Position numbers and translations under genes: made by a program. From the sequence record NC_054893.1: a DNA stretch of 49,847 nt; one strand, written 5' to 3'. Shown here piece after piece: positions 6,228-37,219 of the stretch. Position 1 is the stretch's first letter. Every line of letters starts with the position of its first letter. The notes under the pieces are model-generated. The model was not told where the DNA came from. It was given only the letters and a program-made list of their open reading frames with translations, and did not search any database. Source of the stretch: Escherichia phage vB_EcoS_W011D.

Positions 6228-6240
6228 TGATTATATCAGC

Positions 6241-6260
6241 TTTTTAGCAATTAGTGCTAT
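6241..6260 (-). promoter_or_regulatory. Conserved 20-bp box copy (ATAGCACTAATTGCTAAAAA, minus orientation)
   Basis: Box overlaps the terL TAG stop; TATAAT lies only about 4 nt downstream, then the attenuator hairpin. Confidence 0.5.
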
Positions 6261-11358: not shown

Positions 11359-11630
11359 GCGTTTACTTCCTCCTCTGCGTATGCGTCGAAATCGTGTTGT
11401 GTCAGCGGGATACCTGCGCGCTGTGCATCTTCGATCATTTCTAGCAGTGAATCCGGCATAAGAATATGATTTTCAGGCATATAGTTTGCAGCCATGCAAC
11501 GCGCCCATTCTCTCAAAGAGTTGAACCCCTGGCGGCGTGCCGTGTATGGCGTTTTCAATCCATCATCCCAGCCATACGCTTTGCCTACGTTTTCGAATGC
11601 GTTTACCAGGTGCTTGCGAATGGTTGCCAT
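11352..11630 (-). CDS. Hypothetical protein
   Basis: 92-aa track ORF with AGAGGAG RBS; first gene after a box copy. Confidence 0.45.
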   Translation of the reverse strand: MATIRKHLVNAFENVGKAYGWDDGLKTPYTARRQGFNSLREWARCMAANYMPENHILMPDSLLEMIEDAQRAGIPLTQHDFDAYAEEEVNAW

Positions 11631-11696
11631 CTTGTTTTCTCCTCTGATTGGTTGCTTAACTCAACGAGGAGCACTATAACAAATGCTCCTGATTTA

Positions 11697-11716
11697 GTTT
11701 TAGCAATTCGTGCTAT
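11697..11716 (-). promoter_or_regulatory. Conserved 20-bp box copy (ATAGCACGAATTGCTAAAAC)
   Basis: Followed by hairpin AGGAGCA/TGCTCCT with TATAGT 18 nt after the box. Confidence 0.6.
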
Positions 11717-11901
11717 TTTCGGCGCTTCATCAATTCGAACACTTCACGCCCTCCGGCCTTTTTGCCATCATAGTAAGCGGGTATTGAGTAGGCCAGGGCA
11801 AGCACCGCCGCGCCTAAGTGGTTTGTAAAACCTGGCTCCATGATCACGATACCAATCACCGCGATAGCCAACGTTAACAACAGCTTTTTCCAATTCCACA
11901 T
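11713..11901 (-). CDS. Small membrane protein (62 aa, two hydrophobic segments)
   Basis: Track ORF with GAGGAA RBS. Confidence 0.45.
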   Translation of the reverse strand: MWNWKKLLLTLAIAVIGIVIMEPGFTNHLGAAVLALAYSIPAYYDGKKAGGREVFELMKRRK

Positions 11902-12152
11902 TATTCGAATTCCTCGCCATCAAAACGAATCAACATGCTTACTTCATACTCGCGGTATTCGTGCATAACATCAATGAACATAAACGCGCTCATTACCGAT
12001 TCAAACTCAATAGCGCCTAATACGTCGCTAACATAGTGCCACTTGCGCCCAAAAATGTTTTTGCGTTGGATGTACACCGCGCCGTTTTCGCTCATTTCGA
12101 TGATTACGCGGTACTCCGGTTTAAACAGTCGTTTTAGTGCATTGCGAACCAT
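11901..12152 (-). CDS. Hypothetical protein
   Basis: 83-aa track ORF with AAGAGGTG RBS. Confidence 0.45.
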   Translation of the reverse strand: MVRNALKRLFKPEYRVIIEMSENGAVYIQRKNIFGRKWHYVSDVLGAIEFESVMSAFMFIDVMHEYREYEVSMLIRFDGEEFE

Positions 12153-12241
12153 AAAACACCTCTTATGCCATACATTACAGTTAGGATAGCAAGGCCAATA
12201 ATCATGGCCTTGTGAAAGTCAAATGGTGGTTGTGCGTGCAT
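12134..12241 (-). CDS. Candidate micro-ORF (about 35 aa, hydrophobic core)
   Basis: ATG one nt after the stop of gene 12243-12641; weak GGGAAA RBS; overlaps the next gene start; found by manual translation. Confidence 0.25.
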   Translation of the reverse strand: MHAQPPFDFHKAMIIGLAILTVMYGIRGVLWFAMH

Positions 12242-12242
12242 G

Positions 12243-12641
12243 TTATTTCCCTAAGCGGCGAGCCAGGCTATTCAGGATCTTAAACTCATAGCTCCCGCGC
12301 TCGCTTGTTTTTAACATCTGGCGGATATATCGACGCATACGGCGGAAATCCTGCTTTTCTTTCAGCTTGCGGCATGTGTCGCGCTTAGTGTAACGGCCTT
12401 TGTTGTCTTTTACCATAATGAATCTTGCGATCATGGTTGCACCCTCTACGCCGTAATACTTGCCTCGCTGGTAGTTGAGCGCAAAGCCTCCGTTAATATC
12501 GGGGCATCCCTGGTTATAATCGGTGATTGTGCAACGCTCAGTATGGTAATGCTTTCCGACAATGAAGTTGTTAGAGTTGGAAGAAATGCACTTCATCACA
12601 TAACCAGCGTCGTGAGTGTCGAGGCGTTTTGAGCTATTCAT
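12243..12641 (-). CDS. Hypothetical protein with Cys/His cluster and basic C-terminus
   Basis: 132-aa track ORF with AAGGAAACGAAACA leader. Confidence 0.45.
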   Translation of the reverse strand: MNSSKRLDTHDAGYVMKCISSNSNNFIVGKHYHTERCTITDYNQGCPDINGGFALNYQRGKYYGVEGATMIARFIMVKDNKGRYTKRDTCRKLKEKQDFRRMRRYIRQMLKTSERGSYEFKILNSLARRLGK

Positions 12642-12698
12642 TGTTTCGTTTCCTTGTTTGGTTGGTATGGGTGCATTATAGCGGGACTGATTGCCCCG

Positions 12699-12718
12699 CT
12701 TTTAACATTTCGTGCTAT
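12699..12718 (-). promoter_or_regulatory. Conserved 20-bp box copy (ATAGCACGAAATGTTAAAAG)
   Basis: Overlaps the TAG stop of the kinase gene. Confidence 0.55.
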
Positions 12719-13293
12719 TTCGCCAGGTGATCGCGTATAATTTCCTCAACCGTTACCATTGGGTTTTTATCCATTAGGTAATAGTCATATTCGCAATATC
12801 CGCTTACGTTGTCGCGCGCGCTACTGATTCGGATGTAGTCGCGGCTATCGCCCTGGAAAGTGAACCCCTCGCGATGGAGGCGGCAAACTTTTACCTCGTG
12901 ACCTCCTCTGATTAGTTCGATCACTTCATCGGGAAAACCGCCATCAGTGCAAATAACCGGAATGTCGCTGCGCTCCGCTTCCTCTGCAAACCGCTTGCCG
13001 AAATACCCATTGCCGAAACGCGGCTTGATTACTTCCTCGCTAATCCAGATCATGAACTGGCGGCAACTCATACCATTCAGGAAGTCATGCGGCTTTTCTT
13101 TCTGTTCGCGGTCATTATACGCCGCCAAGAATTCGCGGTACTTACCAGGTCCAAGCATGGCAAGTGCGATCTCAAACATCGGTTGTTTGAAGCTCAACAG
13201 TCGCAACGGTACTGGTGATTCATCCTTAACCAGCGATCCGATTGTGTCTTTTCCAGCGCCTGGCGGTGCATTCAGAATGATGATTTTAGCCAT
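12715..13293 (-). CDS. P-loop kinase (polynucleotide 5'-kinase-like)
   Basis: N-terminal Walker A LNAPPGAGKDT right after the start, as in the kinase domain of T4 Pnk; GGGGAGAA RBS. Confidence 0.55.
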   Translation of the reverse strand: MAKIIILNAPPGAGKDTIGSLVKDESPVPLRLLSFKQPMFEIALAMLGPGKYREFLAAYNDREQKEKPHDFLNGMSCRQFMIWISEEVIKPRFGNGYFGKRFAEEAERSDIPVICTDGGFPDEVIELIRGGHEVKVCRLHREGFTFQGDSRDYIRISSARDNVSGYCEYDYYLMDKNPMVTVEEIIRDHLAK

Positions 13294-13820
13294 TAGTGTT
13301 TCTCCCCAACTTTGATTGTGCTGATCTGGTGTTCGTATTTTTCAATTTTATACGCCGTCGCATCATAAACGGTTTGCTTTGAAATCTGCAAATTGTCAAC
13401 GCAAACAACACCCTTCTCAATGTCATCAGCCAGATTGCGAAGTATTTCGGCGTACTTTGCGCGAACTTCATCAACACTGCTTGGTTCAATAAATCTCATC
13501 TCATTTCTCCTTTGTTGATTGCTTTCAATAAGGCCGCTCGCAAACGGCCTTGCGAAAAGTCTTATGGGCAACTGCCAAACACATTCTTTCCAGTTTTCTG
13601 GATCGTCAAGTTTGCCGCAATAAATCACTGCGCGATTTTCCTCACCATCGCCGGATTGCCATTCTGGAAAATGCGCCATGTGCTCAGGCTCGCCCTTGTA
13701 TCCGAACACGGAACCATCTTCATCTTGCGCAAGGTGCGTTGCGCCGCTAATAAGGATCTTGTTTTTGGTGGTCACGCCGTACTTTTCAATTTCGGTGAAA
13801 ATCTGCTCTAAAGTTTTCAT
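13293..13820 (-). CDS. Hypothetical protein (175 aa) between kinase and phosphatase
   Basis: Track ORF trimmed to MKTLEQIF start with CGAGGAA RBS. Confidence 0.4.
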   Translation of the reverse strand: MKTLEQIFTEIEKYGVTTKNKILISGATHLAQDEDGSVFGYKGEPEHMAHFPEWQSGDGEENRAVIYCGKLDDPENWKECVWQLPIRLFARPFASGLIESNQQRRNEMRFIEPSSVDEVRAKYAEILRNLADDIEKGVVCVDNLQISKQTVYDATAYKIEKYEHQISTIKVGEKH

Positions 13821-13874
13821 GCTTAGTTCCTCGTTGTTTGGTGTGGGGCTACTATACCGCAACCCCAATTTCGT

Positions 13875-13894
13875 GTTTTAGCAATTCGTGCTAT
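13875..13894 (-). promoter_or_regulatory. Conserved 20-bp box copy (ATAGCACGAATTGCTAAAAC)
   Basis: Box follows the TAA-TAG end of a 27-aa micro-ORF. Confidence 0.55.
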
Positions 13895-13977
13895 TACGCG
13901 CCGCTTACAATGATAGCAATGACAATGCTATTAATGATCATGATTGCGGCAAAAACCATCATTTGATATGTGTTCAT
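13894..13977 (-). CDS. Micro-ORF, 27-aa hydrophobic peptide (MNTYQMMVFAAIMIINSIVIAIIVSGA)
   Basis: ATG overlaps the phosphatase TAA stop (TAATG); AGGAG RBS inside the 3' end of the phosphatase gene; manual translation. Confidence 0.4.
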   Translation of the reverse strand: MNTYQMMVFAAIMIINSIVIAIIVSGA

Positions 13978-14513
13978 TATTTCAACTCCTCCACGCCGTG
14001 AGATTTCAGGTGATTGTGTATATTCTCGCCGTAGTCAGTGACCGCGTAAGTTGTGATCCCCAGGCTGCGCATATGCTTAATAACCGTTGGCGAATCGTCA
14101 AAGGCGCACACAATGTTATCCAGGCCGATAGCGCGCAAAACCTCCTCTTTGATGATCGTGTCTTTGCGGTTGTCAAAACTCCGGCGCATGATGATGTGAT
14201 CGTAATGCACGCCGTTATCAGTGAGCCAATCGACTGATTCTTTCATTACCTCGTCGCTGCGCCCTGTTAGGATGATAACCGCAAAGCCTGACACCCAAAG
14301 GCCGTTGATAATGGCGATTGTGCTTCTGATTGGTAAATCATTAACGGCTGCGCGGTTAAATTCGCTCCATGATTCAGTTAGGTGCAAATCCTTTGTCGGT
14401 AGCAGGTGCAAGCGGTGTTTCCCGTCGCTCAACGTGCCATCGTAATCAACAATCACGATCCCTTTGTGGCGTGATGGCATAATGTAGGTTTGATCCCAAA
14501 TCTCAAATTGCAT
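13977..14513 (-). CDS. HAD-family phosphatase (polynucleotide 3'-phosphatase-like)
   Basis: HAD motif I DYDGTL near the N-terminus (T4 Pnk phosphatase domain has DVDGTL); AGGAG RBS. Confidence 0.6.
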   Translation of the reverse strand: MQFEIWDQTYIMPSRHKGIVIVDYDGTLSDGKHRLHLLPTKDLHLTESWSEFNRAAVNDLPIRSTIAIINGLWVSGFAVIILTGRSDEVMKESVDWLTDNGVHYDHIIMRRSFDNRKDTIIKEEVLRAIGLDNIVCAFDDSPTVIKHMRSLGITTYAVTDYGENIHNHLKSHGVEELK

Positions 14514-14778
14514 TGTGCAAAGCTCCTGATTTTAGTTTATTCCAGAATGCGAACGGGTTTTCATTGATAACCTCGATTTCATCATAAGTAAAGAAAAGCG
14601 TTGGCTGCGACTCTATAGGCCATGCCGCCTCGTCACGGTATAATTTATCTGGATCGTATTTCACAGATTCGCCAACCGGAATCATCCAGCCGCTATAGCC
14701 TTTCTCAGCCATCACTATTTTACCAACGGCGTGATTGAATGAAGAATAATCCGAATGTAAGATCCTAACCTTTTGCAT
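14503..14778 (-). CDS. Hypothetical protein
   Basis: 91-aa track ORF with AGAGGAAAGG RBS. Confidence 0.45.
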   Translation of the reverse strand: MQKVRILHSDYSSFNHAVGKIVMAEKGYSGWMIPVGESVKYDPDKLYRDEAAWPIESQPTLFFTYDEIEVINENPFAFWNKLKSGALHNAI

Positions 14779-14833
14779 TGCCTTTCCTCTCGTTGGTTGA
14801 TGCGGTCATGATACCAATCAGCACACATGACCG

Positions 14834-14851
14834 CTTAACATTTCGTGCTAT
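14834..14851 (-). promoter_or_regulatory. Conserved box copy, slightly truncated (ATAGCACGAAATGTTAAG)
   Basis: Immediately downstream of the 55-aa membrane ORF stop. Confidence 0.45.
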
Positions 14852-15018
14852 TACATGAACCAGCCCATGATTGCGCCAGCAGGAGCGATAACAGCGCCAA
14901 CCGCGCGAATGATTAGTTCGTTAGTAGAAATCTCGCCAAACATTGCAACGATATTCATGATCCAGCCGATAACACCAGCAATCCAAAGAGCGATAAAGCC
15001 AAAGCCTAAAGTTTTCAT
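14851..15018 (-). CDS. Small membrane protein, about 55 aa, missed by the 60-aa track cut-off
   Basis: ATG with GAGGAAATAACT RBS; two hydrophobic segments; the plus-strand ORF 14855-15103 here is judged spurious. Confidence 0.45.
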   Translation of the reverse strand: MKTLGFGFIALWIAGVIGWIMNIVAMFGEISTNELIIRAVGAVIAPAGAIMGWFM

Positions 15019-15073
15019 AGTTATTTCCTCGTTTGTTGTCGATGGGTGTATTATGCCGGATTGCTCCGGCGAT

Positions 15074-15093
15074 GTTTTAACAAAAAGTGCTAT
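15074..15093 (-). promoter_or_regulatory. Conserved 20-bp box copy (ATAGCACTTTTTGTTAAAAC)
   Basis: Box contains the TAG stop of the 28-aa micro-ORF. Confidence 0.55.
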
Positions 15094-15176
15094 TTATTCA
15101 TAGCCCATATAAACCATGCTATATGCGCCACATACACAACGCCAATTGATATGGCAAACACTGCATCAATGTTCAT
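15090..15176 (-). CDS. Micro-ORF, 28-aa hydrophobic peptide (MNIDAVFAISIGVVYVAHIAWFIWAMNK)
   Basis: ATGA overlap with the upstream 49-aa ORF; stop is the TAG of the box; manual translation. Confidence 0.35.
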   Translation of the reverse strand: MNIDAVFAISIGVVYVAHIAWFIWAMNK

Positions 15177-15322
15177 TTTAGTAAGCAAAACGCCCTTGCA
15201 TTGTATGCGTGTTTCATTACCACCTCGCGAGCCTCCAGGCAACGCGCTTTGCTGTGGAATTCCTGCGTTGTAACCGCCTCGCCTTGCATGGTGGAAATAA
15301 CCAGGATTAGAACGTGAATCAT
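15173..15322 (-). CDS. Small ORF, about 49 aa
   Basis: ATGA overlap with the stop of gene 15319-15606; GGAGA RBS; manual translation. Confidence 0.35.
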   Translation of the reverse strand: MIHVLILVISTMQGEAVTTQEFHSKARCLEAREVVMKHAYNARAFCLLK

Positions 15323-15606
15323 CCGAAAGTCTCCATTATGCCAAAAAGTGAAATCAGCGATTTATTGCGCTTCCTGCGATATTTGCGCATAACCATGCTA
15401 ACATCGCCTATCTGATGGCCTAACGTAATCGGCATTTCCGATCCGTCGCCATAGTCGTTTTCGCCTTTCTTGGGCTTGTTCTGCCAGGCCTGGATAAATC
15501 CGAACTTGTCGCGTGTAACATAGCGGTATATGTTCGGGAGGTGAATCTTGATGCCCTCAAAATCAACCTCCGCGCTATAGCTCCTGAAATTAAGCGTGGA
15601 ATTCAT
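15319..15606 (-). CDS. Hypothetical protein (start uncertain: 15606 or 15627)
   Basis: Track ORF 15319-15630 whose listed first codon is not ATG; internal ATG starts are possible. Confidence 0.35.
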   Translation of the reverse strand: MNSTLNFRSYSAEVDFEGIKIHLPNIYRYVTRDKFGFIQAWQNKPKKGENDYGDGSEMPITLGHQIGDVSMVMRKYRRKRNKSLISLFGIMETFG

Positions 15607-15748
15607 AAACAACAACCCCCATTTCATCAATCACTTGCGCCTTGTAGTAACCGCCGTTTGCCGCCAGCAAATACGCCTGGCTCAGTGTTTCAAACTCGCG
15701 GGTTACTGGCTGGCTTTGCTCGTGTTCCCAAGTAATCAAAGTGGTCAT
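15590..15748 (-). CDS. Small hypothetical protein (52 aa)
   Basis: Track ORF 15590-16057 trimmed to internal Met (MTTLITWEHE) preceded by CGAGGATTTAGCA leader; the upstream part of the track ORF overlaps the lipoprotein gene. Confidence 0.45.
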   Translation of the reverse strand: MTTLITWEHEQSQPVTREFETLSQAYLLAANGGYYKAQVIDEMGVVVYEFHA

Positions 15749-15803
15749 TGCTAAATCCTCGTTTCGTTTCGATGGGGTTACTATATCGCAACCCCTGAAT
15801 CGA

Positions 15804-15823
15804 GTTTTAACAAAAAGTGCTAT
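15804..15823 (-). promoter_or_regulatory. Conserved 20-bp box copy (ATAGCACTTTTTGTTAAAAC)
   Basis: Followed by hairpin GGGGTT/AACCCC with TATAGT between the arms, then leader CATCGAAACGAAACGAGGA. Confidence 0.6.
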
Positions 15824-15903
15824 CTTGCGATAATCCACGCGATCCAGAATATGACCGTAAGCCAGATAAAAATTCCTATTGCAAATTGTCCAGGCTCTTT
15901 CAT
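15820..15903 (-). CDS. Micro-ORF, 27-aa hydrophobic peptide (MKEPGQFAIGIFIWLTVIFWIAWIIAR)
   Basis: ATG overlaps the lipoprotein TAA stop (TAATG); stop is the TAG inside the box; manual translation. Confidence 0.4.
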   Translation of the reverse strand: MKEPGQFAIGIFIWLTVIFWIAWIIAR

Positions 15904-16223
15904 TATCGCTCGTCCTGGCGAGTGCAACCCTTGCCGCAAGCGTGCGATCCTGTTTCGGTGATACCAACACCAGAAACGCCGATGTACTCTTTGCCAGTCT
16001 GCTTGTCGGTGATGATGTAAATCCCGCGCTTGTCGTTGTACGCCAGGCCATCAGCAAATTCAGTTAACTTGCGCACACTCACGCGGTCGTGATCTGCTCC
16101 TGTTTCAACCTGCATTCTAATGCGTGCATGTTCCGGCGTGCGGGTGTCGCTATCGCAACCAGTCAGCATCACCACGCCAGCAACAACCAGGATTGCGCCT
16201 AACGCTACTTTGAATTTGTTCAT
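15903..16223 (-). CDS. Lipoprotein (signal peptide with lipobox MLTGC)
   Basis: 106-aa ORF; N-terminal MNKFKVALGAILVVAGVVMLTGC fits a signal peptidase II substrate; GGAGGG RBS. Confidence 0.6.
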   Translation of the reverse strand: MNKFKVALGAILVVAGVVMLTGCDSDTRTPEHARIRMQVETGADHDRVSVRKLTEFADGLAYNDKRGIYIITDKQTGKEYIGVSGVGITETGSHACGKGCTRQDER

Positions 16224-16471
16224 TTCTTGCCCTCCACTGGTTCAACTGTGAATTTCTCACCCTCACGCATAAGCGCATTCATTGCCGTTTCAAGCGCTGG
16301 CGATCCGACAATATATTCAATATTCAAATCGCCGGACACCAGGCGAACGCGTGGCTGTTGCAGGTGATGAACATCTTTGATAATCAGATCCCAGCATTTA
16401 GAGTTAGGGCGGTGTTCGCCCAGGATTTCAACGATCTGCTCTGCTACTTTGCGAATGTCTGCGTGGTTCAT
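16220..16471 (-). CDS. Hypothetical protein
   Basis: 83-aa track ORF with AAAGGAGAA RBS. Confidence 0.45.
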   Translation of the reverse strand: MNHADIRKVAEQIVEILGEHRPNSKCWDLIIKDVHHLQQPRVRLVSGDLNIEYIVGSPALETAMNALMREGEKFTVEPVEGKK

Positions 16472-16474
16472 GGT

Positions 16475-16933
16475 TTATTCTCCTTTGATCATATTTTCAA
16501 TAATTGCCTGGTAACGCTGCGCCATAATAAGCGCGCCCTCTGCTTTCTCGCCGCTCAAATCTGCAATGTTCGGCATGGTATGCAGCAAACCGCGCATCGC
16601 TTTTGCCACTGCCTTTTGTTCGATTGCGCTCACATCTTCGCTGGTCAGCACCTTACGCTTTGCATCGCGATTCAGGCGGAACACGTAAAACCGCTCGTCG
16701 TCCGTTTCCTCAACCTTAATGCTGATTGTGCCAGCCGCTTTCACTTCCGGCACGCGGTTGATAATTGTCCTGGAATACGAAACGCTTTTCGTGATCTTGT
16801 AGTAATCATCGCCGTTGTGGTTGCTGGCGAGAATATCAAGCGATAGGCGATACTCCTCAACCTCACCGTCTGCCAGCCGCTTTCCCAGCGCTCGCAACCA
16901 ATTGCAATAATCTTTCGTGGTTTTTTCTTCCAT
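16475..16933 (-). CDS. Hypothetical protein, first gene of the leftward early operon
   Basis: Track ORF trimmed to MEEKTTKD start with GAGGAGGAA RBS, just downstream of a consensus promoter. Confidence 0.45.
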   Translation of the reverse strand: MEEKTTKDYCNWLRALGKRLADGEVEEYRLSLDILASNHNGDDYYKITKSVSYSRTIINRVPEVKAAGTISIKVEETDDERFYVFRLNRDAKRKVLTSEDVSAIEQKAVAKAMRGLLHTMPNIADLSGEKAEGALIMAQRYQAIIENMIKGE

Positions 16934-16964
16934 CGTGATTCCTCCTCTGATTGGTTCGGGAGCC

Positions 16965-16992
16965 ATTATAATCAGGCCGCGCGACGTGTCAA
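16965..16992 (-). promoter_or_regulatory. Consensus sigma70-type early leftward promoter (TTGACA - 16 nt - TATAAT)
   Basis: On the minus strand: TTGACA at about 16987-16992 and TATAAT at about 16965-16970 with a 16-nt spacer; A-rich upstream tract. Confidence 0.6.
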
Positions 16993-17029
16993 TGTTTATT
17001 TTGTTTAACAGACGACTACAACCGCACAA

Positions 17030-17650
17030 AAAGACAAAACAGCGCCTAAGTCATTGAAAACAGGCTGTCTTTTTTTCTGTTAACGCTGTTAACGAGTTGC
17101 GGAGGATTAAATATATATAGATGCGCACACGCCACCCCACCCAGGCGAGCGCATACCCATATATCACTATACATCAATCCAGACACTACCCCATATCCAC
17201 CATAAACAGTGTGAACAATAAAAACAACAAATAGATATATATAAATAAATATACTTTAATTTCAATGTATTATAGAGGATTTATAGTGTTTATTTTGTTT
17301 ACTCAACACCGAAAAACGGCGCGGAAACAATGCGGAGAAATCTGTGAACACCCATGAACAAGAGGAGACAAAGCGCCATGGCGAGAGCGAAAACTTGACA
17401 CTTGCGAACCAGGTTTCACCATTCCCCACACAATCAGTAAAAATTCACACTAATTATTGTCTAAACTGCAACAATCACTATCTTGCATGATGTGCAACGA
17501 TATGCGGCTATCATTTCAGATTTTGCAATGGTGCTGCAAAGCGGTTGTTTTATACACAATCCATCAATAGCACTTTTTGTTAAAAGCGATCGGATCTGAT
17601 TTGCTATAGTTACTTCATCGAAACGGGATACCCAATCAGGAGCAAGCAAG
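17030..17650. other. 620-bp AT-rich non-coding region between the divergent early operons, carrying a ~150-bp element homologous to one in 36530-36990
   Basis: No ORF of 60 aa or more with an RBS; contains ACAAATAGATATATATAAATAAATA and GTGAACAC boxes shared with the second region. Confidence 0.6.
17567..17586 (+). promoter_or_regulatory. Conserved 20-bp box copy (ATAGCACTTTTTGTTAAAAG), first of the rightward early block
   Basis: Followed 18 nt later by TATAGT and the CATCGAAACGGGA leader before the 17652 start. Confidence 0.6.
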
Positions 17651-17651
17651 C

Positions 17652-17927
17652 ATGAACATCAGCAAAACTACTTTCAACTTTGCCAAGAAACGCGGTCTGG
17701 ATCTGACTGTTGAGGATTTCGGCGACGGTCTGCAACTGTGCATTTGGGAAGCTGATAACGATTGCGAATGGCTTTGCTCCTACCGCATCAACTATGACAA
17801 CTTAACCTGGCATGGCAACGTTTACCTCCCGCAAGAGATTAAAGAGGAATTACCAGCAACTATTAGCAACGAGGTTTTCTTGCGCCAGGTGCTGAAATTC
17901 ATCAGCGACGAAATGAAAAAGGCTTGA
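17652..17927 (+). CDS. Hypothetical protein
   Basis: 91-aa track ORF with AGGAG RBS. Confidence 0.45.
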   Translation: MNISKTTFNFAKKRGLDLTVEDFGDGLQLCIWEADNDCEWLCSYRINYDNLTWHGNVYLPQEIKEELPATISNEVFLRQVLKFISDEMKKA

Positions 17928-17946
17928 TAGCACTTTTTGTTAAAAC
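17927..17946 (+). promoter_or_regulatory. Conserved 20-bp box copy (ATAGCACTTTTTGTTAAAAC)
   Basis: Starts at the stop of the upstream gene; followed by hairpin GGGGTT/..CCCC with TGGCATAAT. Confidence 0.6.
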
Positions 17947-18001
17947 TGGATCGGGGTTAGTTGGCATAATAGCCCCATCAACCAATCAGGAGAATCGAAC
18001 G

Positions 18002-18223
18002 ATGAACTTTGAACAACAAACCCAATTCGAAACAGTAGTTACCGAACGTGACGCTACCCACGAGAAAGGATTATTCAAGAAGGGCGCACAAATCACCGTC
18101 GATATTGAGGATATGGTTGCATATCACGGCGGCATCACCTGGAATATCGCAGTGGTTGAGCCGGGCAAGAAATTTAAACTTCTGGCATTCAATACCGTGT
18201 TTGAAACTGTGGAAGGTGAATAA
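18002..18223 (+). CDS. Hypothetical protein
   Basis: Track ORF trimmed to MNFEQQ start with CAGGAGAA RBS. Confidence 0.45.
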   Translation: MNFEQQTQFETVVTERDATHEKGLFKKGAQITVDIEDMVAYHGGITWNIAVVEPGKKFKLLAFNTVFETVEGE

Positions 18224-19048: not shown

Positions 19049-19068
19049 ATAGCACTTTTTGTTAAAAC
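19049..19068 (+). promoter_or_regulatory. Conserved 20-bp box copy (ATAGCACTTTTTGTTAAAAC)
   Basis: Followed by hairpin GCGCCC/GGGCGC with TGGTATAAT between the arms. Confidence 0.6.
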
Positions 19069-19126
19069 GAAATCACGCGCCCTGGTATAATGGGCGCATC
19101 AACAAACGAAACAAGGAAATAAAGCA

Positions 19127-19644: not shown

Positions 19645-20340
19645 ATGGTTATTTGGTCACTGTTTGACGGCTCCGGCATTATGGGCCTGGATTGGGCGAA
19701 AGCTGGTCACACTGTTTTCTGTTTCAATGCTGATACAGCGGATCACGGCGAATACGAAATCAAGATGCAGCATGAAAACCTGCATTATGTGAATGCCTGG
19801 ATTGATGAAACGTTTGATCCGGCTGGCTCGGTGGCTTACCTATCAGGGAACCAGCAAAAGGTAATCAGCAAGCCTGACATTATTTTTGCTTTCCCGTCAT
19901 GCACTGAGTTAGCGCATAGTGGGCGCAAGCATGAGCGCAACGAGGACGCTGTTGATCTGGCTGTCAGTAATGCAAAACTGGTTGAGGCGTTAGGCAATCG
20001 CTATGGTTGCCCCTGGATGGTGGAAAATCCCGTGGGGCTTCTGTCAACTAAATGGCGCAAACCAAACCATTACTTTCACCCGTTCGAATACGGCGGATAC
20101 ATGCGAGAGGATGAAAAGCCTTATCATCCAAAAATGCCAGCTTTCGACGGGTACACAAAGAAAACTTGCATTTGGTGCGGTAACGGTTTTGTTATGCCTG
20201 ATAAAGTACCAGGCCCGATCAATATAGGTTTCTTTTGGGCGTGGAAGTATTTAGGCGGAAAGTCTGCCAGGACAAAGCAATTGCGCTCACTCACCCCTCG
20301 CGGCTTTTCGCGTGCCGTCATGATCTTTAATTCAAAATAG
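19645..20340 (+). CDS. Short SAM-dependent methyltransferase-like protein, possibly cytosine-C5 type (atypical motifs)
   Basis: 231 aa; LFDGSGIMG resembles MTase motif I, FPSCTE resembles a catalytic Cys motif (not canonical PCQ), ENPVG resembles the ENV motif; too short for a classical target-recognition domain. Confidence 0.4.
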   Translation: MVIWSLFDGSGIMGLDWAKAGHTVFCFNADTADHGEYEIKMQHENLHYVNAWIDETFDPAGSVAYLSGNQQKVISKPDIIFAFPSCTELAHSGRKHERNEDAVDLAVSNAKLVEALGNRYGCPWMVENPVGLLSTKWRKPNHYFHPFEYGGYMREDEKPYHPKMPAFDGYTKKTCIWCGNGFVMPDKVPGPINIGFFWAWKYLGGKSARTKQLRSLTPRGFSRAVMIFNSK

Positions 20341-20356
20341 CACTTTTTGTTAAAAG
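20337..20356 (+). promoter_or_regulatory. Conserved 20-bp box copy (ATAGCACTTTTTGTTAAAAG)
   Basis: Box contains the TAG stop of the upstream gene; followed by hairpin GCCAGG/CCTGGC then CATAAT. Confidence 0.6.
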
Positions 20357-20412
20357 CCAGGTGTAAAAGCCTGGCATAATACAACCACACCAAACGAAAG
20401 GAGCAAATCAAA

Positions 20413-23956: not shown

Positions 23957-24447
23957 TTTTTCAGATCCTTAACGCAATATTTGAACTCAACAGCGCGGCG
24001 GTTGTGTAAGCCTTTCGACTTCTCTTTTTTTCCGGTGCGCGGGTTTGTGTAATACGTCCAACTCCATAGCTGATCGCACGCCTCATACAATCGCCCCTGG
24101 TTAATCAGTTTCAGCATGGTTGACTTGCGAAACGCTCCGATTCCGGCGTTGTATGTGAATGAGTATAGAGCCGCTCGCATGGTGTCTGGAATATCCACCT
24201 TAACGCGCTTATCAACTTCATCCTTTGCGATCTTGATATGCTTTGCCAATAGCGCATCGCATTCGCGCTGCGTGTACGTCTTGCCTAAAACCACATCCTT
24301 TCCTGTGATGCCAGCGCATACCGTCCAGATTCCAGCAATATCCTTGTAAGGCTTATACCTGATTCCCTCGATCTCCTCCAGTAGTGGAGAAGTTAAGGCG
24401 AGCGCCACGCCAAAAGCACCCGCCGTGATTCTCGTCTTAATCGTCAT
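23953..24447 (-). CDS. Endolysin, T4-lysozyme-like (GH24) muramidase with hydrophobic N-terminal SAR-like segment
   Basis: Catalytic spacing E-8aa-D-5aa-T present ([16 protein letters not shown]); N-terminal [17 protein letters not shown] segment; between holin and spanin. Confidence 0.8.
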
Positions 24448-24662
24448 TATTTACCCCTGATTTTGATTGCCTCTTGAATGTCTCCGCGATCTAGTGCTTC
24501 CTGAAACGCCTTGCTATCTTTCCAGCGAAGATAAGCGCCCCATAAACCAAAAGCCGCCATCAACACCAGGCTTGCAACAGCAATTGTGATCTGCCCCGTT
24601 GCCGCGCTGGTTAATGATGATCCGCCAGTACCCATTGTTGCGGCGTTGATAAATTCTTTCAT
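24447..24662 (-). CDS. Holin (single transmembrane helix, charged C-terminus)
   Basis: 71 aa with one hydrophobic helix [21 protein letters not shown] and a Lys/Glu/Asp-rich tail; immediately upstream of endolysin. Confidence 0.6.
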
Positions 24663-26178: not shown

Positions 26179-26427
26179 CTACCTTCTTTTTTGTGCTTTC
26201 TTTGCCGCGTCCTCTTTTGCCTTTTCCTCTCGGAAAAATTGCAGGGAAGGAATCGCCGGAACCCTGTGAACCTTTCGCGGCCTTTCGTCAATATATGACA
26301 GCTTTCCGTTGCCAATAATACTAACGTCTTTAATATCGAAATATTTAGCAATTAGTGCGATCCCTTCATCTAAACCGCACTCTTTTGCATGTTGCCAAAC
26401 TGCCTGGCGTCCGGTTTCAATCTTCAT
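26179..26427 (-). CDS. Hypothetical basic protein (82 aa)
   Basis: Track ORF 26179-26505 trimmed to MKIETGRQ start. Confidence 0.4.
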   Translation of the reverse strand: MKIETGRQAVWQHAKECGLDEGIALIAKYFDIKDVSIIGNGKLSYIDERPRKVHRVPAIPSLQFFREEKAKEDAAKKAQKRR

Positions 26428-26572
26428 AACCGTAAGCCTTTTTAAGTAATTCCATTGCATCATTCCAAAGGATTTGCGCAATAACTTTAGGGGTTTTGCG
26501 CTCAAGCATAAACAATGATTCCCTTGCTAACCATTGAGCATCTTTGAAATATTCAACATTAACAATTTTCAT
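26417..26572 (-). CDS. Small ORF, about 51 aa
   Basis: ATG preceded by the CGAAACGAAACGAGGA leader downstream of a box copy; overlaps the next gene start; manual translation. Confidence 0.4.
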   Translation of the reverse strand: MKIVNVEYFKDAQWLARESLFMLERKTPKVIAQILWNDAMELLKKAYGYED

Positions 26573-26628: not shown

Positions 26629-26648
26629 GTTTTAACATTTCGTGCTAT
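26629..26648 (-). promoter_or_regulatory. Conserved 20-bp box copy (ATAGCACGAAATGTTAAAAC)
   Basis: Contains the TAG stop of 26645-26878; followed by hairpin CCCCGC/GTGGGG then ATAATC and the conserved leader. Confidence 0.6.
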
Positions 26649-26878
26649 TTGTGCATATCGATCATTTCTTGCAGGTCTTTTGCGATCTGTTCTTGCCACC
26701 TCTCAAGAGGTAACGACCTTGTTTCTTCAAAGCTCATATCGAGCGCGCTTGAATACTCCCACGGGTCGCAATCAATAATCTCCTTTGCGTGCGGGTTTTT
26801 ATCTAGCGCCTCGCATACCATTGCGCGGAATAACAACCACTCGCCAGTTTCATTAAGCAACAAGGCTCTTTCTTTCAT
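26645..26878 (-). CDS. Small acidic protein
   Basis: 77-aa track ORF; ATGA overlap with the upstream micro-ORF. Confidence 0.45.
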   Translation of the reverse strand: MKERALLLNETGEWLLFRAMVCEALDKNPHAKEIIDCDPWEYSSALDMSFEETRSLPLERWQEQIAKDLQEMIDMHK

Positions 26879-26988
26879 GATAACGCCTCAACGATTGAAT
26901 AAACAAATTTTACAAACATAGCCGAACAAAACACGCCAGCCGCCATCACTGCAACAGTAACAAATAAAACTTTTGCATTAAATTTCAT
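26875..26988 (-). CDS. Micro-ORF, 37-aa membrane peptide
   Basis: Track ORF 26875-27099 trimmed to internal Met (MKFNAKVLFVTVAVMAAGVF) with AAGGAG RBS; starts 1 nt after the Dam stop. Confidence 0.4.
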   Translation of the reverse strand: MKFNAKVLFVTVAVMAAGVFCSAMFVKFVYSIVEALS

Positions 26989-26989
26989 A

Positions 26990-27736
26990 TTAAAAACTCC
27001 TTGCCTTTGCTCTGCGATTCTTAACAGAAGGGCAAATTTCAGTAATTGTAACGTAGTGAGTTTGCTGTTGCTCACCCTCTTTAAGTTGGCGCATAACAAA
27101 AATCACACTTCCTTTGTTATTTCCTTGCACTGGTTCGCCAGTAAGACCAGAAATAAAGGCAAGGCGTCCAGTTCTTGAATATTCGCGCCCATCCTCTCCT
27201 TTCCAGGTGTCGCCAGTAATCCAGATAATTTCCGCCGCGTTTTTCTGTGCATCCTTAAACCATGCTGTTGAGTTATCAGCGGGTAATAAAATATCAATCT
27301 GGTTATCGTGCTCCATTTGCTCAATTGCTTTTAACACAAAAGGATCTGGATTGCTGTATGGTGGATTAAGCCAAACATGTTTTTTGGAACCCCACCAGCG
27401 CTTTAAACAGTTAGTTTCCTTACTGTAAAACTTATCGCAAACTTTATTATCATCACTTGCCGCCGCGTCAAGATCATATTTACCGTAACGCTCTTGCATA
27501 TATTCTACAACCTCGCGAGGAGTAGCCCACAAGTCGCGCACAACGTCCGGCGTATTACTTCCGGCGTAACGGTTGCCGCTAACTTTGAAATAAGTGTTTT
27601 CCCTCACTGGCTGATAATGACCACCAGAACGCAACGCAATATCTGAATATCTGCCGTGTTGTAATTCGTGAAAATCCATTTCGTCAACCTGCGCCACGCC
27701 GTCAATGGTTGCATTGTCTAAAATATCTTTTGCCAT
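26990..27736 (-). CDS. DNA N6-adenine methyltransferase (phage Dam-like)
   Basis: Track ORF trimmed to MAKDILDN start with GAGGACA RBS; motifs DLDAAAS and WLNPPYS (NPPY catalytic motif). Confidence 0.65.
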   Translation of the reverse strand: MAKDILDNATIDGVAQVDEMDFHELQHGRYSDIALRSGGHYQPVRENTYFKVSGNRYAGSNTPDVVRDLWATPREVVEYMQERYGKYDLDAAASDDNKVCDKFYSKETNCLKRWWGSKKHVWLNPPYSNPDPFVLKAIEQMEHDNQIDILLPADNSTAWFKDAQKNAAEIIWITGDTWKGEDGREYSRTGRLAFISGLTGEPVQGNNKGSVIFVMRQLKEGEQQQTHYVTITEICPSVKNRRAKARSF

Positions 27737-36515: not shown

Positions 36516-36543
36516 CATTCTAGCCATTTTTCGCGTTTAGTCA
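36516..36543 (-). promoter_or_regulatory. sigma70-type early promoter for the recombination operon (TTGACT - 16 nt - TAGAAT)
   Basis: On the minus strand, TTGACT and TAGAAT separated by 16 nt directly upstream of the exonuclease start. Confidence 0.5.
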
Positions 36544-36990
36544 ATAGGTGTAATGTTATTTTTTGTTTTCTGTTGTTTGTTTTCTATAGTGATAACAAAA
36601 TTGCATCGTAAGTTATTGATTTTGTCTTTGTTGTTTTTGTGTTTACCGTGTTCACAGATTTACGCCGGATATATAGGAATAGATACACATAAACAAAATG
36701 ACCATTACACAAAGTGAAATCACCACAACCAACCAAAAACCAATGAAACATAGAGAACAAAAAGAAACAAATAGATATATATAAATAAATAAACTCTTAT
36801 TTTTCATGTATATAGTAATATTTACTGTATGCTTATTGCTCAATAGCTGATTAAAAAATAAGCTAAATTTACGCCTACGCAAATTCGTGAACACTCTGGA
36901 ACAAAAGAAAACAAACGATAGCACTTTTTGCTAAAACTTCCGGTCGAGATCGTGTATAGTGAGCGCATCTAAACCAAAAGAGGAAAACAA
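36530..36990. other. 460-bp AT-rich non-coding region carrying the second copy of the ~150-bp element shared with 17030-17650
   Basis: No credible ORF; shares ACAAATAGATATATATAAATAAATA and GTGAACAC boxes with the first region, same orientation and spacing. Confidence 0.6.
36917..36936 (+). promoter_or_regulatory. Conserved 20-bp box copy (ATAGCACTTTTTGCTAAAAC) upstream of the Cor-like gene
   Basis: Followed 17 nt later by TGTGTATAGT (extended -10-like). Confidence 0.55.
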
Positions 36991-36991
36991 A

Positions 36992-37219
36992 ATGAAAAAG
37001 ATGATTGCCGTTTTAATTGCAGCCGTTGCCCTGACTGGTTGCGCAAATATGCCGAAACGCGAATGCACCGCAATTTATGAGAATAGCGGAATGGATTATG
37101 AAGTTGCGATCTTTGGCGTTAAGCGAATTAACGATCACACATTCGTGAAGCCTGGCTATCCTTTCAGTTATCATTGGGTTAGCATTGAAAACTTTAAAAA
37201 CGCAGATTGCAGCATTTAA
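36992..37219 (+). CDS. Small lipoprotein, Cor/Llp-like superinfection-exclusion candidate
   Basis: Track ORF trimmed to MKKMIAVL start with AAGAGGAAAA RBS; lipobox LTGC; 75 aa; encoded opposite to and just beyond the tail-fibre genes. Confidence 0.5.
   Translation: MKKMIAVLIAAVALTGCANMPKRECTAIYENSGMDYEVAIFGVKRINDHTFVKPGYPFSYHWVSIENFKNADCSI

Follow-up and report, generated by a model that had tools for sequence, protein, structure and literature searches.

The window analysed here is the whole 49,847-nucleotide (nt) stretch of Escherichia phage vB_EcoS_W011D (W011D; sequence record NC_054893.1), and the subject of the analysis is a series of eight micro-open reading frames (micro-ORFs) for peptides of 27 to 55 amino acids (aa) in its leftward early region, designated by the lower of their minus-strand coordinates as 12134, 13894, 14851, 15090, 15173, 15820, 26417 and 26875. 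The leftward early operon is headed by a sigma-70 promoter of perfect consensus (TTGACA-16-TATAAT; 16965..16992, minus strand), which faces a divergent region at 17000-17650, and it includes the genes for a polynucleotide kinase/phosphatase (PNK, pnkP; 13977..14513, minus strand; PF25109 HAD_PNKP in close relatives) and for a 106-aa early lipoprotein (15903..16223, minus strand; lipobox LTGC; phrog_16585). The phage is a T1-like siphophage of the genus Changchunvirus. The region 13500-16300 resembles T1-like siphophages of the Drexlerviridae, subfamily Tempevirinae; its closest relative is Escherichia phage PaulSarasin (Bas09, genus Changchunvirus), with 96.7% identity over 65% of the query, followed by PHB17 with 82%. 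Homologs were sought in a phage collection of 50,697 records, in IMG/VR and in fetched related loci, which include 53 metagenome loci. The preliminary description took the micro-ORFs for small, translationally coupled genes of the early leftward operon rather than noise, and the data on selection and family membership uphold this for six of the eight.

All eight reading frames are present on the minus strand, at precisely the coordinates given in the preliminary description and each with an ATG start, and most of the starts are tightly linked to a neighbouring gene. The TAATG overlaps that had been proposed were confirmed for 13894 with the PNK stop at 13977 and for 15820 with the lipoprotein stop at 15903, as was the ATGA overlap through which the start of 15090 is coupled to the 49-aa gene upstream (15173). 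The gene 15173 in turn starts by ATGA overlap with the one before it (at 15322), and 26875 starts 1 nt past the stop of Dam while its own TGA overlaps the following ATG. Ribosome-binding sites, which had been claimed for the small ORFs, could be recognized as Shine-Dalgarno (SD) motifs 6-9 nt upstream of seven micro-ORFs (GGAGGAG, GAGGA, GGAG, AGGA/GAG, AAGGAG, GAGGA and AGGGA), but not for 15090, which would thus depend on coupling alone. Longer versions initiated at TTG (15820-15939, 15090-15242 and 26875-27099) were considered and rejected, because the coupled ATGs are the conserved starts. By itself an open frame of 27 codons says little: a 6-kb stretch of this region is overlapped by 117 ORFs with 20 aa or more.

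The second recurrent feature is a promoter-type box with the motif TAGCA(C/T)-N4-5-TG(T/C)TAA, or RAATAGCAC-N5-TG(T/C)TAAAAC in its fuller form, which occurs in 20 copies in the window, each followed ~20 nt on by a TATAAT-like hexamer and then by a ribosome-binding site and an ATG. On the minus strand, copies are found at 13874..13893 (TAGCACGAATTGCTAAAACA, with TATAGT ~20 nt later), at 14831..14850 (TAGCACGAAATGTTAAGCGG, followed by TATCAT), at 15073..15092 (TAGCACTTTTTGTTAAAACA, whose TAG ends the 28-aa ORF 15090) and at 15803..15822 (TAGCACTTTTTGTTAAAACT, whose TAG ends the 27-aa ORF 15820); further examples lie at 17928-17947, 19050-19069 and 20338-20357 on the plus strand and at 6240-6259 on the minus strand. 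The stop of the upstream gene is the box TAG, or lies three bases before it, at ~14 of the 20 boxes, and this holds for long genes as well, with products of 522, 250, 231, 192 and 143 aa. When the related loci are counted together with the window, the box TAG terminates 85 of the 164 ORFs that adjoin a box and have 50 aa or more, and the codon before it is AAA in 51 and GAA in 22 of these 85, so that many of the products end in Lys. Any upstream gene therefore takes its stop codon, and in many cases its final residue, from the box (RAATAGCAC...), and the box-terminated micro-ORFs behave in this respect as bona fide long genes do. When the segments between an upstream stop and the box were shuffled, an ATG no more than 11 nt from the upstream stop that was open to the box stop appeared in ~2% of cases per gap, and all three real gaps are filled by a coupled ORF in the frame of the box stop. 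The view that most of the micro-ORFs end in the TAG of the next promoter box needs to be narrowed, because this is true of 15090 and 15820, whereas 13894 and 14851 use a TAA directly before the box TAG, and the stops of the remaining four do not lie at a box and overlap or abut the next gene instead. With its position ~5 bp too far upstream, the TTGTTA of the box would not function as a sigma-70 -35 element; a standard promoter scan misses every copy.

Comparison with relatives, by retention of the frame together with an excess of synonymous change, indicated coding for 12134, 13894, 14851, 15173 and 15820, with Fisher p values ranging from 0.009 to 3e-7 for 12134, 13894, 14851 and 15820 (ratios of nonsynonymous to synonymous substitution rates, dN/dS, of 0.12-0.24). 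The evidence is strong for four micro-ORFs, which appear to be real genes. The first, 12134..12241, encodes a predicted 35-aa membrane micro-protein (MHAQPPFDFHKAMIIGLAILTVMYGIRGVLWFAMH) and overlaps the next gene by 19 nt; tblastn found matches in 150 phage records, nearly all T1-like and down to ~50% identity, homologs are present in at least 12 fetched loci, and dN/dS is 0.12 against both PaulSarasin and PHB17; in PaulSarasin the ORF is annotated. The second, 14851..15018, is the sole gene of its cassette, with boxes on both sides, and its product, a predicted two-helix membrane protein of 55 aa, matches phrog_6006 over its full length (E 2.2e-15; residues 2-54 on profile positions 3-58 of 58), falls into six clusters among 5.8 billion proteins and has a dN/dS of 0.15 against PaulSarasin and the related locus L048. 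Its invariant residues follow the pattern GWIMN..MFG..TNELIIR..APAG..MGWFM, the C-terminal half being invariant, and the AlphaFold2 (AF2) model is a helical hairpin (H4-27/H32-54) with a predicted local distance difference test score (pLDDT) of 70; the protein is QCW18478.1, annotated as bas09_0071 in PaulSarasin and KMB85_gp29 in W011D. The third, 15173..15322, with ATGA coupling at both ends, encodes a 49-aa protein that has a Cys..Cys domain and an N-terminus that is hydrophobic over a short stretch, and that matches phrog_5579 in full (E 1.6e-19; residues 1-49 on positions 2-52 of 52); PaulSarasin has the identical protein, its gene differing by 5 synonymous and 0 nonsynonymous changes, and divergent homologs stand directly after the PNK gene in PHB17 and in locus L015. 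The fourth, 26417..26572, is the first gene past the box at 26647, and its 51-aa product, identical in PaulSarasin, is a full-length member of phrog_2180 (E 3.1e-21) and of a 90% cluster of 63 members from Tlsvirus and Changchunvirus; it is most probably a real small protein, but a hydrophilic one and not a membrane peptide. The three PHROG families are without an assigned function. Separately, ~20 unannotated MG0656xx records named 'Campylobacter phage' contain the T1-like micro-ORF of 35 aa, at genome sizes that are T1-like as well, and these records may be mislabelled or contaminant Drexlerviridae.

For the two 27-aa micro-ORFs the evidence is intermediate. The ORF at 15820..15903 encodes a peptide (MKEPGQFAIGIFIWLTVIFWIAWIIAR) predicted to form a single Trp-rich transmembrane (TM) helix; it is coupled to the lipoprotein gene, ends at the box TAG and is annotated in PaulSarasin, with one substitution, as bas09_0067. 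An unannotated homolog of 73% identity is present in Klebsiella phage HazelMika, which belongs to another genus (Vilniusvirus), and there an ATGA overlap couples it to an unrelated upstream gene, while its end is at the TAG of the same box. With a dN/dS of 0.12 (Fisher p 2e-4) and 4/1/13 differences at the three codon positions, the evidence that 15820 is coding can be considered good. The possibility that the peptide is a partner of the lipoprotein to which it is coupled was rejected, because the corresponding pair lies ~1.7 kb apart in HazelMika, with the peptide coupled to the unrelated gene, and because PHB17 has the lipoprotein without the peptide. The ORF at 13894..13977 encodes an uncharged peptide (MNTYQMMVFAAIMIINSIVIAIIVSGA) with a single predicted TM helix and a conserved mid-helix Asn-Ser. 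Its tblastn search of the phage collection gave no match, and an IMG/VR scan with four degenerate back-translated DNA patterns (one for 15820, two for 13894 and one for 15090) matched only PHB17, where a local search with the low-complexity filter off located an unannotated homolog of 25 aa (MSTTQMIVLAAIMITNSIVISLLIQ). Coupled by TAATG to a different upstream gene, this homolog finishes at the box TAG ahead of the same downstream cassette, and the two-codon difference in length means that the frame is kept. A dN/dS of 0.24 (Fisher p 0.009), with a codon-position bias of 6/3/11 that is a trend only, gives moderate evidence that 13894 is coding. The homologs of both peptides, 15820 in HazelMika and 13894 in PHB17, thus retain the coupling and the box stop despite a different upstream gene.

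The remaining two micro-ORFs stand apart. The ORF at 26875..26988 encodes a TM-like peptide of 37 aa, has an AAGGAG SD motif, exactly fills the gap from Dam to the next gene and is annotated as KMB85_gp61 in W011D; an identical protein is encoded on 11 metagenome or assembly contigs, one of which (L074) shows 2 synonymous and 0 nonsynonymous changes, and the coding evidence is weak to moderate. For 15090..15176, which encodes a 28-aa peptide (MNIDAVFAISIGVVYVAHIAWFIWAMNK), is coupled to the 49-aa gene and ends at the box TAG, the evidence is weak, with anatomy alone speaking for a gene. The expected conservation in relatives was accordingly found, as purifying selection and/or family membership, for six of the eight, but it did not extend to 15090, which lacks a homolog, or to 26875, which has an ATT in place of the start codon in PaulSarasin. 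Among the family models, none from PHROG, Pfam or NCBIfam matched the five shortest products (27, 28, 27, 35 and 37 aa), and none from Pfam or NCBIfam matched any of the eight.

The membrane propensity of the peptides was assessed by summation of the Hessa scale, where one hydrophobic segment of 17-21 residues with an insertion energy (delta-G) near or below zero was taken to indicate a TM segment, and AcrZ (-2.9), KdpF (-2.8) and TisB (+2.0) served as controls. Clear TM segments were predicted for 15820 (-3.6), 13894 (-2.5), 26875 (-0.9) and the first helix of 14851 (-0.7), and the values for 15090 (+0.8) and 12134 (+1.3) are marginal and inside the range of known small membrane proteins. The peptides had been described as hydrophobic and mostly as single TM helices, and six of the eight are indeed TM-like, but 15173 is not (~+5; its hydrophobic N-terminal stretch covers only ~12 residues), and neither is 26417 (~+13), the hydrophobicity of which equals the median of short ORFs. 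Five of the candidates fall in the top 6% for hydrophobicity among the 233 short ATG ORFs of the window. T makes up 31-42% of the micro-ORFs but 23% of long genes, a bias that hydrophobic peptides are expected to produce.

The position between the stop of an upstream gene and the next box differs in content even between close relatives. In PHB17 the lipoprotein gene reads straight into the box (GAG CGA TAG CAC), whereas the window and PaulSarasin have at this point an insert of exactly 84 nt, flanked by GATA on either side, which is the 27-aa ORF 15820. Similarly, the 49-aa gene ends at the box TAG (AAA TAG CAC) in PaulSarasin and in locus L069, and relative to these two the window contains another insert of exactly 84 nt, flanked by AAAT on either side, which is the 28-aa ORF 15090. 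The slot that in the window holds the lipoprotein gene and one 27-aa ORF, and that extends from a DUF7174 gene pair to the box of the DUF7170 cassette, is occupied in Citrobacter phage Stevie by three annotated TM ORFs of 35-37 aa in tandem (gp60-62) and in phage TLS by gp03. Stevie gp60-62 and TLS gp03 resemble the window's peptides in that they belong to the same subfamily, early operon and slot and are single predicted hydrophobic helices with their own ribosome-binding sites, and TLS gp08 (35 aa) is a comparable single-helix ORF with its own site elsewhere in the operon, just upstream of pnkP; no significant sequence similarity was found between the Stevie and TLS peptides and those of the window. 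Several metagenomic relatives have Stp (see below) or other hydrophobic ORFs of 22-43 aa in the terminal position before a box. In L071, a close relative (Logan SRR13494361 contig of 50,553 bp; 808-1380), the whole cassette of the DUF7170, 65-aa and 49-aa genes is missing, so that just one box separates the lipoprotein gene from a 59-aa homolog of 14851, an arrangement consistent with cassette loss via recombination between boxes. No pair of the window's micro-ORFs scored above shuffled sequences in a test for paralogy. Because the slot varies between relatives, being empty or filled by an 84-nt module, by three TM micro-ORFs or by Stp, it appears to be a variable, accessory position, and its occupants would be dispensable accessory genes.

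The micro-ORFs had been presented as unannotated, which is only partly correct. An exact-sequence look-up indicated that the 84-nt ORFs do lack annotation in W011D, but four of the eight micro-ORFs appear to be annotated there and five of the eight in PaulSarasin, so that the statement as a whole is true solely relative to the 60-aa cut-off of the preliminary description; moreover, Stevie annotates the comparable 35-37-aa TM ORFs of the same slot. Annotation of the 84-nt ORFs is inconsistent, and they are absent from the annotations of PHB17 and HazelMika. The minimum gene length of Prodigal is 90 nt, and these ORFs were likely missed in some records because they fall below the usual length cut-off of gene callers. 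Several of the micro-ORFs are thus already recorded as hypothetical proteins, small hydrophobic early proteins are a familiar feature of phages, and the mildly unusual points are limited to the stop-in-box architecture and the exact 84-nt modules; the anatomy of the slot and the box is new relative to the preliminary description. Literature searches found no functional studies of these peptides or of the early genes of W011D.

A functional precedent for the slot is provided by Stp, the 26-aa anti-restriction peptide of T4-type phages that activates the anticodon nuclease PrrC. Stp homologs of 26-31 aa are encoded in the pnkP operon of TLS (L004, 1865-1945) and Stevie (L003, 4870-4950) and in loci L027, L016, L029 and L036. 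In TLS and Stevie the 26-aa Stp is the last ORF before a box, as are the box-terminated micro-ORFs of the window, and the box, read in another frame, encodes its five C-terminal residues with the stop (NSTNC*), so that Stp terminates at the box TAA. Stp therefore shows that this slot can hold a functional host-interaction micro-gene, but it is hydrophilic and cytoplasmic, unlike the TM-like peptides of the window. The window keeps pnkP without Stp: neither tblastn with the Stp sequences of TLS, metagenomes and T4 nor a six-frame scan for the motif (S/N)(W/F)HNEHVMQ(F/W)(Y/W)R detected it. In size, in having one TM helix and in insertion energy, the peptides are similar to host regulators of at most 50 aa, such as AcrZ, MgrB, MgtS, SgrT, KdpF and CydX, but these are host-encoded and have no homology to the phage peptides. 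Host small membrane proteins of this kind act by binding a larger membrane protein. Another parallel is with the superinfection-exclusion proteins of T-odd and T-even phages (T1 Cor, T5 Llp and T4 Imm and Sp), which are early or moron-type envelope proteins of virulent coliphages; however, a lipobox is absent from all of the micro-ORFs, unlike the lipoproteins Cor and Llp, and no similarity to the Imm or Sp families was found for the micro-ORFs. The window has its own homolog of the superinfection-exclusion lipoprotein Cor (36992-37219, plus strand; phrog_1119, E 1.7e-26), preceded by a box at 36919, and its own holin gene (24447-24662, minus strand; 71 aa; phrog_2877, E 1.3e-33). Host takeover, superinfection exclusion and lysis timing had been suggested as roles; since holin and Cor are encoded by separate genes elsewhere, the micro-ORFs are unlikely to act in the canonical lysis or Cor-type modules. 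The Cor homolog is also preceded by an AT-rich region (36530-36960) that appears to be non-coding.

Collectively, these comparisons suggest that most of the micro-ORFs are probably genuine genes for very small proteins of the leftward early region, and mostly for peptides of the host inner membrane. In its best-supported form, this interpretation counts at least six of the eight as real genes and predicts inner-membrane peptides for six of the eight. Transcription would start at about nine internal promoters of the box type as well as at the consensus sigma-70 promoter, and translation would occur mostly through coupling to the upstream gene. Four of the micro-ORFs occupy the last position of a cassette, extending from the stop of the previous gene to the box of the next cassette, with the box itself (RAATAG) giving the stop signal. 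The products of 13894, 14851, 15090, 15820, 26875 and 12134 would then be inserted in the host inner membrane as one-helix peptides, or in the case of the 55-aa product as a two-helix hairpin. By analogy with AcrZ, MgrB, MgtS and SgrT, they could bind a larger inner-membrane protein of the host by helix-helix contact and thereby modulate a host-specific process early in infection, for example transport, secondary infection or the effectors of defence or abortive infection. The presence or absence of these genes among close relatives, together with Stp in the equivalent slot, suggests an accessory role in the interaction with the host. We also consider it conceivable, though unlikely, that the junction of stop and box is a dedicated site of micro-gene gain and loss in T1-like phages, at which modules of ~84 nt, encoding one TM helix or, in TLS, Stp, would be inserted or deleted through 4-nt microhomology; such a module would be translated at once by coupling, because the box supplies the stop codon, and the site might act as a nursery for host-interaction peptides, including ones born de novo such as the 28-aa orphan.

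Several points weigh against the interpretation as genuine genes for membrane peptides. Translation, membrane insertion and function are inferred here from the sequence, that is, from the ORFs, the coupling, purifying selection on six of them, the TM propensity and the slot anatomy, and the dN/dS values of the 27-aa ORFs are single pairwise comparisons over ~25 codons. No micro-ORF matched a characterised protein family, so the proposed binding to a membrane partner is by analogy only. T-rich sequence yields hydrophobic ORFs, and 20 of the 233 short ATG ORFs, 15 of them others that lie mostly within longer genes, are equally hydrophobic; hydrophobicity by itself therefore proves nothing, as chance ORFs reach the same level. 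The objections are most pointed for two micro-ORFs. For 15090, which also lacks an SD motif, no homolog was found in the phage collection, IMG/VR or the fetched loci, and searches of the phage collection and fetched loci with the peptide (tblastn) and with the 84-nt insert (blastn) returned nothing real. For 26875, the counterpart in PaulSarasin has a single change in 114 nt, which turns the start from ATG to ATT, and is unannotated there; an exhaustive HMMER search of 1.84 billion representatives gave no remote homolog, only the protein itself, and the ORF is known solely from near-identical relatives, as an orphan of one genus. It is accordingly possible, although we regard it as rather doubtful, that 15090 and 26875 are non-functional frames in filler DNA, either chance frames or very young ones, arising de novo or decaying, that are open because they are short and T-rich: a 27-codon frame is open by chance about one quarter of the time, and both ORFs contain 34-42% T. 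Such frames would, however, have to fit their neighbours exactly, 15090 through its ATGA overlap and box-TAG stop and 26875 through its strong AAGGAG SD motif and the ATGA overlap with the next gene, a fit with a chance probability of ~2%. The insert of 15090 is exactly 84 nt, so that the upstream stop and the box stop are both kept, and the 37-aa protein of 26875 is identical on the 11 contigs, with synonymous change only; an ATT start can, moreover, still initiate weakly.

Two further explanations were weighed against the genes-for-peptides interpretation. In one, the act of translation matters and not the peptide, the micro-ORFs being spacers whose translation carries ribosomes along the mRNA as far as the box, which would prevent Rho-dependent polarity or set the distance between gene and promoter, while the sequence is free to drift within a hydrophobic composition. 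Nearly all genes of these operons are translated right to the box, the slot's occupants share no sequence relationship, and the slot may be empty, as in PHB17 and L071; yet where it is empty the upstream gene simply ends at the box, so that no spacer is required, and the dN/dS values together with the third-position bias indicate selection on the amino acids of 15820 and 13894, in which the conserved positions include Trp residues (15820) and polar residues inside the helix (the Asn-Ser that 13894 shares with its PHB17 homolog). We therefore consider this explanation highly improbable. In the other, the peptides are membrane-damaging effectors, either holin- or antiholin-like lysis timers or toxins of type I style, which depolarise the inner membrane for host shut-off or lysis timing. 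Type I toxins (TisB, DinQ, Hok, Ldr and Ibs) and holins or antiholins are likewise short hydrophobic peptides acting at the inner membrane, the micro-ORF products resemble TisB, DinQ, Hok and pinholins in size and hydrophobicity, and the 55-aa protein has Gly/Ala-rich small-xxx-small motifs as in channel-forming helices. Unlike type I toxins, however, the micro-ORFs lie within a coupled operon with neither an antisense-RNA locus nor a separate promoter. The search for type I toxins gave no NCBIfam or Pfam match for the micro-ORFs and no Rfam family in 11500-17700, that for holins or antiholins gave no PHROG or Pfam holin match for any micro-ORF, and none of the hidden Markov model (HMM) matches was to a holin or toxin family. 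The canonical holin (phrog_2877) is encoded in a separate region, whereas the micro-ORFs sit in early cassettes, and a depolarising toxin made constitutively early would presumably cost the phage, so that a membrane-damaging role appears improbable. An RNA gene as explanation for the region was likewise dropped, because the tRNA scan of the region was empty, as was the Rfam scan.

Three further small genes were noted near the 60-aa cut-off or in the early operons. The gene at 11713-11901 (minus strand) encodes a predicted two-helix membrane protein of 62 aa and ends at the box TAG at 11715; that at 15593-15748 (minus strand) encodes a 52-aa DUF7170 protein (PF23776) and is masked by a spurious TTG-initiated ORF of 155 aa; and that at 18002-18223 (plus strand) belongs to the rightward early operon, where it comes first behind the box at 17928, and encodes a 73-aa protein of PF25180, 'Phage antiviral trigger protein Gp54' (E 1.6e-32).

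Current understanding is not overturned by these results, which are useful for annotation, since homologous micro-genes are annotated in one phage (PaulSarasin, Stevie) and overlooked in another (PHB17, HazelMika and probably W011D). Natural plus/minus pairs exist, namely the window versus PaulSarasin for the 28-aa ORF and the window and PaulSarasin versus PHB17 for the 27-aa ORF 15820, which make a phenotype easy to test. Drexlerviridae are used in phage-therapy and defence-system screens, and the peptides described here are candidates for accessory early functions that may govern host range and the interplay with defence systems in this family.

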